Assembly (NCBI RefSeq): GCF_053078305.1
Contig: NZ_CP166879.1
DNA length: 64,000 nt
Strand: one strand, 5' to 3'
How positions within the stretch are numbered: position 1 is the first letter of the stretch; each line of letters starts with the position of its first letter. Below, one piece after another: positions 1 to 9,761 of this stretch. The notes beneath the pieces were generated by a model that did not search any database, was not told where the DNA came from, and worked only from the letters and a program-made list of their open reading frames with translations. The translations under genes and the position numbers were made by a program.

Positions 1-572
1 TGCGGGGTGTTCGTCTGCTGTTCGGGCGTGGTGTACTGACCGGCACAACGGACACGCTGAAAATCCAGAATGTGCAAATCACCGGTATGGATGGTGAAAC
101 CTTTGATGACGTTGAGCGCCCCCAGCAGTACGGGCAAATCAGCGTCCCCCTGCCTGGTGCGGAAGTTTTTCTGGCCTGTGCTGGTGGACAACGGGATCAG
201 GCCGTGGTGCTTGTGGTGGAAGACCGCCGCAGTCGCCCGACCGGACTTACCGCCGGAGATACCGGCGTGTATCACCATGAGGGGCACCGTATACGTCTGA
301 CAAAGAACGGCCGGATCATTGTGACCTGTAAGACGCTGGAGATTTACGCCGATGAAGGAGTTCAGGTGGATACACCGGAGGCTCACTTTACCGGTAATGT
401 CACAGTGGATAAGAACCTGCATGTCAAAGGCAATGTGTCCATTGACGGCACCGGAAGATCACAGGGGACGTTCACGATGTCCGAAGCGGTTATTGCCGGG
501 ATCACCTATTCAGGTCATGTGCATCACGATAACGGTGAAGGCAGCAAAACGGGAGGACCAGAGAATGGCTGA
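1..572 (+). CDS. Phage baseplate assembly protein V-like (Mu gp45 / P2 gpV type), 5' end outside window
   Basis: Open frame from window edge with no upstream stop; first gene of a V-W-J-I baseplate block; stop overlaps next start. Confidence 0.7.
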   Translation, partial: RGVRLLFGRGVLTGTTDTLKIQNVQITGMDGETFDDVERPQQYGQISVPLPGAEVFLACAGGQRDQAVVLVVEDRRSRPTGLTAGDTGVYHHEGHRIRLTKNGRIIVTCKTLEIYADEGVQVDTPEAHFTGNVTVDKNLHVKGNVSIDGTGRSQGTFTMSEAVIAGITYSGHVHHDNGEGSKTGGPENG

Positions 573-1002
573 TATTGCTGTCGTCTGGGATCAGGGTTGT
601 GGTTCCCTGCAACTGAACGGCGCAGATCTTCTGACGGATAACAGCCTGCTGACTGCGGTCATTATTTCACTGTTTACGGACAGGCGGGCGCTGGATTCCG
701 ATGAAATCCCTGACGGCACCCGTGACCGTCGGGGATGGTGGGGAGACAGTTTCCGGGAGCGCCCCATTGGCTCCCGTCTCTGGCTGTTAAGCCGTGAAAA
801 GACGCTGTCCTCCGTGGTCAGCCGTGCACAGGCCTATGCTGATGAAGCGCTGGCGTGGCTGCATAAAAGCGGTGCTGCCACATCCGTGGTATGTCATGCC
901 ATGCGTGTGGGGCATGATCGCCTTTCGCTTTCCGTGAAAATCACCCTGCCGGACGGAAGCAGACATCCGATGATTTTTTATGCTGATATGAAGGGGGAAT
1001 GA
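565..1002 (+). CDS. Phage GP46-family baseplate protein (gpW-like)
   Basis: ATG at 565 preceded by GGAGG, overlaps V stop; about 145 aa; position between V-like and J-like genes. Confidence 0.65.
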   Translation: MADIAVVWDQGCGSLQLNGADLLTDNSLLTAVIISLFTDRRALDSDEIPDGTRDRRGWWGDSFRERPIGSRLWLLSREKTLSSVVSRAQAYADEALAWLHKSGAATSVVCHAMRVGHDRLSLSVKITLPDGSRHPMIFYADMKGE

Positions 1003-2084
1003 TGCCTTATCAGCCCTTACCACTGGCGCAACTGATCACACAGACACAACAGGATATCAGCCAGCGCCTGCCCGGTTCGCAGCCGGGCGTGAATGAAACC
1101 ACCCTGAATGCCATTGCGTATGCACTGGCGGGTCTGTCAGCACAGGAGCATGAACATCTGGCCTGGATCTCCCGGCAGATAATTCCGACAGAAGCTGATG
1201 AAGCCGAACTCCTGAAACACTGCGCATTCTGGGGTGTCATCCGTAAACCGGCTTCCCGCGCTGACGGACCGGTACAACTGATGCTGACCACGGATGCAGG
1301 GATCACGGAAGGCGTACTCCTTCAGCGAAGCGATGGTGTTGTGTACCGCATCACCGGCTCTGCGACCGGAAAAGCCGGAACACTGAATGTTAATGTGGAG
1401 GCGGAAAGTGCGGGGCGCGCTGGAAATACCCCGACCGGAACCCGCCTGTCCTTTATCACGCCACAGGCGGGCATCAACCAGACAGCCACGGTCACCGGCA
1501 CGGGACTCACCGGTGGTGCGGATGTGGAAACGGTGCCGGAGTTGCTGTCCAGGCTGGTATTCCGGGTACAGAACCCGCCATCAGGGGGAACACAGTATGA
1601 TTTTGAACGCTGGGCACGGGAAGTACCGGGCGTGACGCGGGCATGGTGTAAGCCTGAATGGCCTGAGGCGGGTAGTGTTGGTGTGACTTTTGTTCAGGAT
1701 AATAACCCTGACATTTTCCCCGGAGAAGGTGATGTGAAGCGGGTGGCGGATTATATCCGCAGTCATGATGATCCGGCGACGGGCCAGCCCGTTGGTCAGC
1801 CACTTGGGCCGACAATCAGCGTGTTTAAGCTGACCAATAAGTCGGTGGCGTTTGAGATCAGGATTGTACCCAAAACGCCGGAAAATCAGGCTGCCGTAAA
1901 ACAGGCATTAACGGACCTGCTTTATAACGAATCGCGGCCGGGTGGACTTGTATTGCCTTCATCATTCTGGCGGGCTGTTGCAGGGGTGAAAGGACTGGAG
2001 GATTTTGAAGTTCGCAGTCCGCTGAAGTCCGTGATGGCCGGAGATACAGAGTTGCTGACCGTGGGGGAAATCACATGGCTGTAA
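999..2084 (+). CDS. Baseplate J-like protein (Mu gp47 / P2 gpJ type)
   Basis: 361 aa ORF, translationally coupled to flanking genes. Confidence 0.75.
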   Translation: MMPYQPLPLAQLITQTQQDISQRLPGSQPGVNETTLNAIAYALAGLSAQEHEHLAWISRQIIPTEADEAELLKHCAFWGVIRKPASRADGPVQLMLTTDAGITEGVLLQRSDGVVYRITGSATGKAGTLNVNVEAESAGRAGNTPTGTRLSFITPQAGINQTATVTGTGLTGGADVETVPELLSRLVFRVQNPPSGGTQYDFERWAREVPGVTRAWCKPEWPEAGSVGVTFVQDNNPDIFPGEGDVKRVADYIRSHDDPATGQPVGQPLGPTISVFKLTNKSVAFEIRIVPKTPENQAAVKQALTDLLYNESRPGGLVLPSSFWRAVAGVKGLEDFEVRSPLKSVMAGDTELLTVGEITWL

Positions 2085-2632
2085 CCCTGACCCCGCATCA
2101 GCGCGCCCTGTTGCAGTTGCTGCCTGACGGGCTGGCATGGGATAAGCGGCCGTCATCCGTTCTTGCAGCTTTGTGCCTGGGCCTCAGTCATTCCACGGAG
2201 CGTGTTTCCTGGACCGGTAACCAGATGCTGGCAGAACGTTTTCCTGATTCATCCCGTCTGCTGCTGGAAGACTGGGAGCGTTATCTGGGGTTGCCGGAAT
2301 GTGATATGACCGGCGCAACCATTCAGGAACGTCAGCGTTATGCCGGGAATAAATACCGGATGAAACCCTCTCTTAACCGTGAATTTTATATCCGGTTTGC
2401 GGCTGAGTTTGGTTATGAAATAGATATCCAGCCATCACCGGAATCACAATGGATCAGTATTGTGACAGTGAAGACGGCGGTGGGATACCGTCACATGAAT
2501 GTACTGGACGATATTCTTACACCACTGCGAATTTATGATGCAAGTGCGCTGGAGTGCATTTTAAACCGTTATAAGCCAGCCTGGCAGACGTTTTTATATC
2601 TGTACGAAAACAGTCATGAGGAGACGGAGTAA
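2075..2632 (+). CDS. Phage tail protein I-like (Mu gp48 / YmfQ type)
   Basis: 185 aa ORF overlapping J stop and immediately preceding the tail fibre gene. Confidence 0.65.
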   Translation: MAVTLTPHQRALLQLLPDGLAWDKRPSSVLAALCLGLSHSTERVSWTGNQMLAERFPDSSRLLLEDWERYLGLPECDMTGATIQERQRYAGNKYRMKPSLNREFYIRFAAEFGYEIDIQPSPESQWISIVTVKTAVGYRHMNVLDDILTPLRIYDASALECILNRYKPAWQTFLYLYENSHEETE

Positions 2633-8760: not shown

Positions 8761-8961
8761 ATGTATCGAAACATACGGTGCCGACACTGCAATAAGCTAC
8801 TGGCACGGGCCAGTTTCAGTTATCTGGAAGTAAAATGTCCGCGCTGTAAAACCCTCAATCAAATCACATCTCCGAGCGCCACAGAGCACCCCACATACAC
8901 AAGGAAATCCTGTCGTGGGGAACAGAAAGCAAGTCACATCCCGTATCATCAGCACGCCTGA
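8761..8961 (+). CDS. com: Com-like zinc-finger translational activator
   Basis: 66 aa from ATG 8761; [14 protein letters not shown]...EVKCPRCK resembles Mu Com as recalled; 3' end overlaps the next ORF as in Mu. Confidence 0.6.
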
Positions 8962-9652
8962 ACTTATTCGCTATAACGACAATATCGTTGGTTATGGTTC
9001 CCGTGAGTTGCGGGTTGAGACAATAAGTTGCTGGCTGGCCAGACTGGTTATCGTCAATAAACATTACAGCCACCGTTTCGTAAATAACTCCTACCTTCAT
9101 CTGGGCATATTTTCAGAACGGGAACTTGTTGGCGTAATGCAATGGGGTTACGCCCTTAACCCAAACAGTGGTGCACGCGTCGTAACGGGTACGCAGAACC
9201 GAGAATATATGGAGCTGAACCGGCTATGGATGCATGACTGTATGCCGAGAAACTCCGAATCAAGGGCAATCAGTTACGCGCTCAAGCTAATCAGGCAGCT
9301 TTATCCGCAGGTACAGTGGGTTCAGTCGTTTGCAGATGAGCGTTGTGGCTGTCTTGGTGTCGTGTATCAGGCAAGCAATTTTGATTATGTAGGCAGCCAT
9401 GAAACAATATTCTATGAACTTGATGGCGAGTGGTATCACGAGATTTGCAGGAATGCCATTAAACGAGGCGGACAACGAGGTGAACATCTGAGGGCTAATA
9501 TCGACAGAGCCAGTGTGCATAAGTTCCGACAGTTTCGTTACATCCGGTTTCTGAACAAGAGGGCCAGAAAACGCCTCAACACAAAGCTATTCAAAGTCCA
9601 GCCTTACCCAAAACCACAAACAGTTAAAACTGGTTTGAAAGAGAGTGAATGA
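8915..9652 (+). CDS. mom: Mom-like DNA modification protein (start codon uncertain, non-ATG)
   Basis: 245 aa ORF overlapping com by 47 nt, last gene before the prophage end; assignment mainly by context. Confidence 0.45.
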
Positions 9653-9694
9653 GCGCTTAAAAACTCATTCTAAAACTCAAAAGAAAAGCGCCGA

Positions 9695-9761
9695 TTTAGT
9701 ATCAAATAAGTTGCGTATCGGCGTTTTTCAGCGGTATCAAATGAAATGCAAATCGGTATCA
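9695..9761. repeat. Putative prophage terminal repeats and right end
   Basis: GTATCAAA motif three times (9698, 9732, 9754), the last two 22 bp apart; second site contains GAAAAACGC as in Mu end sites; proposed end ...GGTATCA at 9761. Confidence 0.35.

Follow-up and report, generated by a model that had tools for sequence, protein, structure and literature searches.

This study revealed that positions 1-9780 of a 64,000-nucleotide stretch of contig NZ_CP166879.1 (NCBI RefSeq assembly GCF_053078305.1; the whole stretch is hereafter the window) very probably represent the right arm, from the baseplate genes to the right end attR, of a Mu-like transposable prophage of the Sp18 family, which entered the host gene yciQ by insertion mediated by a DDE transposase and not by site-specific recombination. 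The copy in yciQ is a new insertion of an already described prophage family. The genes and their order, the exact terminus at position 9780, the break in yciQ after nucleotide 1280, and a pair of inverted repeats with gix-like sites beside a Gin homologue were all observed directly in the window. An earlier reading of the same DNA, made from its letters alone (the sequence-only reading), had proposed the right arm of a Mu-like prophage in yciQ, and this proposal was borne out by the homology to Mu, the gene order and the junction.

Gene families were assigned with PHROG, NCBIfam and Pfam, and the right arm of Mu was fetched (NC_000929) and compared locally by blastp. The window opens within the gene for baseplate assembly protein V, the homologue of Mu gp45, of which the 3' part occupies 1-572 on the plus strand (TIGR01644 phage_P2_V, 173 bits; 53% identity to Mu gp45); approximately 43 nt are missing at its 5' end, the full gene measuring 615 nt in relatives. 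It is followed on the same strand by a gp46-like baseplate wedge protein at 565-1002 (phrog_180, E = 2e-56; 54% to Mu gp46 over the full length), a baseplate J or gp47-like protein at 999-2084 (phrog_6, E = 2e-74; 53% to Mu gp47 over 361 aa) and a gp48 or YmfQ-like baseplate wedge protein at 2075-2632 (phrog_203, E = 1e-59; 46% to Mu gp48). These genes constitute a Mu-type contractile-tail baseplate module, gp45 to gp48, collinear with that of Mu at 46-54% identity. A tail fibre gene, an invertible segment and a Gin-type invertase gene come next, and the arm closes with a com-mom pair. The small com gene (66 aa, 8761-8961, plus strand; phrog_13819 gpCom, E = 5e-13; 47% to Mu Com) has a zinc-finger-type CxxC...CxxC pattern and overlaps by 47 nt the start of the Mom-family gene, which lies at the extreme right end, begins with GTG and encodes 245 aa (8915-9652, plus strand; phrog_1384, E = 9e-84; 79% to Mu Mom). 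When the window was compared by tblastn with 50,697 phage records, the best named matches were to Mu and its close relatives, at 50% for the baseplate block and 78.6% for Mom.

The layout given by the sequence-only reading (baseplate V, gp46, J and gp48-like genes, fibre, invertible segment, Gin, com-mom) was thus recovered with every listed gene present in that order and, in the blastp comparison with Mu proteins, with 30-79% identity for each, but the list had passed over some 3.6 kb between gin and com (5165-8760). According to the open reading frame (ORF) listing and the family searches, the listed genes lie on the plus strand, while the fibre-assembly gene and an alternative fibre C-terminus lie on the minus strand. 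As that reading had also stated, there is no integrase at this end: no tyrosine integrase was found in 1-9780, where the only recombinase is the serine invertase.

The boundary between phage and host was located by megablast of positions 9600-10600 against 5,426 complete Escherichia coli genomes. In strain TUM13936, where yciQ is uninterrupted, the alignment to the gene begins precisely at position 9781, with 100% identity, and phage matches in other genomes stop at 9780-9784. The phage therefore ends at 9780 and the junction is 9780/9781, 128 bp beyond the mom stop codon (115 bp in Mu). Host DNA does begin soon after mom, as had been noted, although the distance had been put at about 110 bp and the end of the element at 9761. 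The latter figure arose because the truncated yciQ ORF reads into the phage end, where it gains the residues IARRFF and meets a stop codon at 9759-9761; its last 19 coding nucleotides and the stop are phage-derived. Alignments to TUM13936 and K-12 place the 5' part of yciQ, truncated by the insertion, at 9781-11030 on the minus strand (K-12 nt 1-1280 of 1896), with the break in codon 427 of 631. In both TUM13936 and K-12 the intact, prophage-free gene continues for another 616 nt, which excludes a natural end of yciQ at the junction and confirms that the element ends inside its coding sequence. The yciQ allele of the window also lacks, independently of the prophage, 10 codons in frame in the region of 10941 (YEEGISLFDV, K-12 codons 31-40).

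The right end itself (attR, 9697-9780) finishes with ...GCGCTATA-3', and seven relatives, each at a different locus, end in exactly this sequence. It holds three repeats of the CGGTATCAAA type in the same orientation, at 9754-9763, 9732-9741 and 9697-9706, which are presumed to be transposase-binding sites R1-R3, and the left end of Sp18 holds three copies of this motif, at inward positions 18, 113 and 165. The element thus has a defined terminal sequence with multiple repeats that may bind the transposase. In Mu, R1-R3 are set close together and L1 stands apart from L2-L3, and the spacing of these putative sites matches that arrangement. The four nucleotides CCCA at 9781-9784 are the predicted right-hand copy of a 4-bp target duplication, a prediction that rests on exact 4-bp duplications in all seven relatives.

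These relatives provide the support for transposition. Seven full prophage copies of 38.8-39.6 kb with the common right-end sequence were fetched. They are inserted in bcsA (STEC2018-607), paaA (STEC1587), a P4-like island (JNEC-KY203), sorM (O157 Sakai, annotated as 'prophage Sp18, Mu-like phage'), a torZ-like gene (STEC299), a hydrolase gene (FWSEC0008) and an ABC ATPase gene (CP55_Sichuan). In the five that were compared, the last 1.4-2.4 kb before the end are 98.5-99% identical to the window. All seven encode a Mu-type transposase (A) and an AAA+ protein (B), alongside repressor c, ner, gam, mor and lysis, head and tail genes, and none has an integrase gene inside the element. The A protein of the family is 22% identical to MuA (E = 8e-11) and matches Pfam Mu-transpos_C, with weak matches to HTH_Tnp_Mu_1 and rve, and the B protein is 48% identical to MuB. 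Each copy starts with 5'-TGTAACC or TATAACC, finishes with GCGCTATA-3' and is flanked by an exact 4-bp duplication (CGAG, GTGA, GGCG, TAAA, TGCT, TTTC and GGCG). For the bcsA and paaA copies, the comparison with the uninterrupted K-12 genes revealed a single copy of the 4 bp in the target. Since relatives with A and B genes and identical termini sit in seven unrelated loci with exact duplications, the claim of the sequence-only reading that the element arrived by transposition rather than site-specific integration is strongly, though indirectly, supported. Its expectation of a 5-bp duplication did not hold: no placement of the ends yields 5 bp, as in Mu, in the bcsA, sorM and island copies, and although the paaA copy alone would fit 5 bp too, 4 bp fits all seven.

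The region from com and mom to the right end (8700-9780) is present in 232 of the 5,426 complete E. coli genomes (approximately 4%), in up to five copies per genome. In three relative records (L004 19731-19815, L001 977-1064 and L013 22013-22100), in a part of the phage beyond that covered by the window, the NCBI Prokaryotic Genome Annotation Pipeline (PGAP) annotates a 'tRNA-OTHER' of 85-88 nt on the opposite strand, between the head- and virion-morphogenesis genes.

Several points weigh against this interpretation of the yciQ copy. The window does not reach the left arm of this prophage, its transposase genes or the left-hand target duplication, which lie upstream of base 1 and were not retrieved; as neither the left arm nor the left junction is covered, transposition is not demonstrable from the window. 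Both junctions were sought in genome and metagenome contig collections, with a gap-tolerant pattern joining yciQ and the left end and with the exact right junction, and zero matches were returned. In megablast against the 5,426 complete genomes, none covered at least 80% of a junction-spanning query, and none had the yciQ insertion. The left half of the copy could be deleted or rearranged, and for Gin, Com, Mom and the esterase described below the activities are predicted from homology. In addition, a CCCCAC/GUGGGG hairpin with the mom start codon in its 3' arm is predicted, and its fold energy is no better than that of shuffled sequences (z = -0.7); as the annotated start region of Mu mom does not fold alike, this hairpin is a weak analogy only.

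If the left part of the element, perhaps together with the 3' part of yciQ and nearby host DNA, had been deleted or rearranged, the window would hold a remnant in which only an Sp18-type right arm survives and which is no longer transposable. The window indeed begins inside gene V with nothing seen upstream, a minus-strand cargo gene (8068-8646) is already disrupted, and there is no other genome with the yciQ insertion for comparison. We nevertheless consider this improbable, given that all phage genes with a Mu counterpart in these 9.8 kb are intact ORFs, the terminal sequence is unchanged, the seven relatives are all full length, and the same cargo gene is equally disrupted in full-length relatives. 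It is far less probable still, to the point of being barely credible, that the arm belongs to an integrase-dependent temperate phage of mosaic type that has a Mu-type tail module, such as SfV, SfII, ST64B or phiP27, which have gp46-48-like baseplate genes in common with it. The baseplate proteins do match those of SfII, SfV, SfI, ST64B and phiP27, but at approximately 29-30%, far more weakly than the 50% found with Mu; the window also has gin, com and mom, prophages with A and B genes, found at many loci with target duplications, share its exact terminus, and the insertion lies within a coding sequence rather than in a tRNA gene or another recognised att site.

With insertion by a DDE transposase as the preferred explanation, the following course of events can be proposed. 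The A transposase and the B ATPase, encoded approximately 30 kb upstream, would have bound the repeats of the TTTGATACC type at either end of the element, and would have joined these ends to yciQ with a 4-bp stagger, leaving CCCA on each side. The left end of the yciQ copy would then be expected as T(G/A)TAACCAGGTG (5'-T(G/A)TAACCAGGTGAATCATTTGATACC), preceded by ...AACATATCGCCCA, then yciQ nt 1277-1896.

In comparison with Mu (Muvirus mu, NC_000929), the window has the same order of V, gp46, gp47, gp48, S, invertible segment, gin, com/mom overlap and attR, as well as gix-like sites, three close-set right-end repeats and a short non-coding right end. In contrast, its end-repeat motif TTTGATACC is unlike the ends of Mu, and the termini of the family are T(G/A)...TA instead of the TG...CA of Mu. 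The 4-bp target duplication of the relatives against the 5 bp of Mu, and the identities of A and B to MuA and MuB given above, are further differences. A close kinship to Mu, D108 and SfMu (genus Muvirus) was also considered and was rejected because there was no megablast match to them among the 50,697 phage records; the divergence of A, the different ends and the 4-bp duplications in all seven relatives point the same way. These observations raise the question of whether the Sp18 family may use a variant of Mu transposition, with a different target stagger and tolerance of a non-CA end. We advance this reading tentatively and regard it as somewhat doubtful; it is suggested by the exact 4-bp duplications in all seven relatives, by a right 3' terminus of TA and not the conserved CA, and by an A protein that has diverged, in contrast to the clearly Mu-like tail genes, Gin, Mom and B. 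No description of a 4-bp duplication in Mu-like phages was found in the literature searched.

The closest resemblance is to Sp18 of O157:H7 Sakai and to the 'Mu-like phages' of Shiga toxin-producing E. coli (STEC). They have in common with the window the gene order from V to mom, a short invertible segment containing only one gene for fibre assembly, a cargo of SASA/DUF6645, DUF1378 and DUF826 genes and a minus-strand gene, and the right terminus ...GCGCTATA. The DNA identity to Sp18 is 93% over 1-6066 and 98.5% over 8426-9780. The differences from the family are the yciQ site, which is occupied in none of the 5,426 complete genomes, and the orientation of the invertible segment, which varies between copies. 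Examples of these Mu-like phages are those of CC119 strains, phi804-3 of FRIK804, and copies inserted in the Shiga toxin (Stx) phages LC727881 and LC727895. Published work describes Sp18 as a Mu-like phage that is apparently intact and fails to circularise, and reports Sp18-like phages from varying locations, Stx prophages among them (PMC2669165, PMC10132054, PMC7430833).

The invertible segment indicated by the sequence-only reading proved to be real, with inverted repeats of 182 nt, gix-like sites and a Gin homologue. The repeat search placed the left arm at 3157-3338 and the right arm at 4360-4541, the two being 91% complementary. At the outer edge of the left repeat lies a gix-like crossover site, TTATCGATAACCTCGGTTTACGGGAA (3149-3174), with 3 mismatches to the 26-bp gix taken from the Mu record, and the right repeat likewise has TTCCCGTAAACCGAGGTTTCAGGGAT (4524-4549) on its outer side, with 6 mismatches to Mu gix. 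The adjacent Gin-type serine DNA invertase (4604-5164, plus strand; phrog_125 DNA invertase, E = 5e-94; 74% to Mu Gin) has the N-terminus MLIGYIRVSTNDQ, in which a catalytic serine motif can be read. The S-like tail fibre gene (303 aa, 2632-3543, plus strand; phrog_1833, E = 3e-149; 44% to the N-terminal 191 aa of Mu S) has a constant part extending to approximately 3161 and a C-terminal part within the segment. On the minus strand of the segment lie a U/U'-like tail-fibre assembly gene (3578-4102; phrog_136, E = 3e-58; 30% to Mu U' and 29% to Mu U) and an alternative, Sv'-like fibre C-terminus (4179-4478; matches to phrog_1833 and phrog_2901), which has the repeat-encoded residues AANKLATPVNINGVPFDGTQDINITSGMTQS in common with the fibre gene at 2632-3543. 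The inverted repeats thus encode fibre residues common to both alternative C-termini and both orientations. The window thereby exhibits the features of a Gin/Hin/Cin/Pin switch: a serine invertase beside a segment with inverted 26-bp gix-type sites that splits a fibre gene, and C-termini on opposite strands.

Gin would invert the segment of approximately 1.38 kb between 3161 and 4537, fusing the alternative C-terminus at 4179-4478 to the constant fibre part, and would thereby swap the last 60-67 fibre residues and change the host range. The orientation of the segment is the same as in the window in STEC1587, JNEC-KY203, Sakai and STEC299, and inverted relative to it in STEC2018-607, FWSEC0008 and CP55_Sichuan; as both orientations are present among close relatives, the switch operates in the family. 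Compared with Mu, the segment is short, with its 182-nt repeats and one U-type gene, whereas that of Mu measures 3.0 kb, and the fibre has 303 aa compared with 504 aa in Mu. The region 3149-4549 holds two alternative fibre C-termini and one assembly gene only, and in the orientation of the window this gene opposes the fibre gene, with none downstream on the fibre strand.

With regard to the com-mom module, a palindrome, AATCGATCG-N7-CGATCGATT, was identified at 8693-8717, 44 nt upstream of com. It includes two GATC sites (8697 and 8710) and is a possible Dam-sensitive control region. By analogy, com-mom may be regulated by Dam, OxyR and C; the palindrome and the predicted hairpin at the mom start would both be in keeping with Mu-type control through Dam methylation and Com. 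Com, as a zinc-finger RNA-binding protein, would permit translation of the overlapping mom, and Mom would carbamoylmethylate adenines in the phage DNA, which would allow the phage to evade restriction.

The block between gin and com (5165-8760, approximately 3.6 kb) is cargo without a counterpart in Mu, where the gap between the two genes measures 95 bp. Its largest gene (5255-7312, plus strand) encodes a homologue of NanS-p/'yjhS'-like esterases of 685 aa with a SASA (sialate O-acetylesterase) domain (Pfam, E = 7.5e-13) and a DUF6645 domain (E = 1.5e-25), for which blastp against Mu proteins revealed no counterpart. In tblastn searches this protein was found to be 50-60% identical to esterases encoded downstream of stx in more than 300 Stx-phage records, some of which are annotated as NanS or 9-O-acetyl-N-acetylneuraminic acid deacetylase. 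The cargo block would give the lysogen a NanS-p-like sialate O-acetylesterase. The likeness to NanS-p of the Stx-converting lambdoid phages comprises the SASA domain and the C-terminal DUF6645 domain and extends, at the identity given above, over 84-89% of the length. Unlike nanS-p in those phages, which lies downstream of stx in the lambdoid late region, the gene of the window sits between gin and com in a transposable myovirus; the N-terminal extension of the window protein (approximately 70-110 residues) also differs, and its esterase activity is predicted from sequence. The 3' half of the gene (approximately 5950-7390) had no megablast match in the four relatives compared. Nothing relevant was found in the literature on nanS-p with Mu-like phages or on ECs4993, and the presence of a NanS-p-like esterase, otherwise known from Stx phages, as Mu-like cargo is a link that did not appear in the literature searched.

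Downstream of the esterase gene on the plus strand, we identified a small ORF of the DUF1378 family (59 aa, 7370-7549; phrog_494, E = 4e-29), an ORF of the DUF826 family (81 aa, 7585-7830; phrog_311, E = 9e-30), both annotated with these families in relatives, and a called ORF of 66 aa (7905-8105) with no PHROG match, at the relative position of which the relatives have an annotated hypothetical gene of 201 nt. On the minus strand (8068-8646), a gene resembling ECs_4996 of Sakai is disrupted and falls into two frames: tblastn with ECs_4996 gave two pieces, 91% and 69% identical. ECs_4996 itself has 154 aa and a cysteine-rich C-terminus, and its homologue is annotated as frameshifted in several relatives as well. 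Sp18 carries the same cargo block, which corresponds to ECs_4993-4996. The idea that DUF1378 and DUF826 are companions of nanS-p in Stx phages was not confirmed in phage YYZ-2008, and DUF826 matches few lambdoid phages only; no claim is made in this respect.

The remainder of the window, 9781-64000, is host DNA collinear with K-12 from 1,326,025 to 1,268,269, with minor differences. At 45953-46221 there is a single tRNA-Tyr gene ahead of the RtT element, compared with tyrT and tyrV in K-12, and the region 62178-63184 holds two rdl/ldr toxin-antitoxin units, the rdlD-type RNAs of which occupy 62346-62411 and 62881-62946, compared with three units (ldrA-C) in K-12. The K-12 elements IS5U (ychE/oppA) and ISZ (tdk/adhE) are absent, and approximately 127 bp of K-12 sequence are missing at the narK/narS end (window 35079-35082, 39162-39171 and 53448-53453).

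The insertion in yciQ matters little in itself, as it is a new insertion site for a described family. A host-range switch with an assembly gene for just one of the two orientations, and the NanS-p-like esterase carried as cargo, may be of interest to phage specialists. If transposition in the Sp18 family does follow a variant course, the window would add one more insertion only, with CCCA as its predicted duplication. The 4-bp duplications, the non-CA right terminus and the very divergent MuA are properties of the whole family, not of this locus, and as such are points for specialists in transposition.

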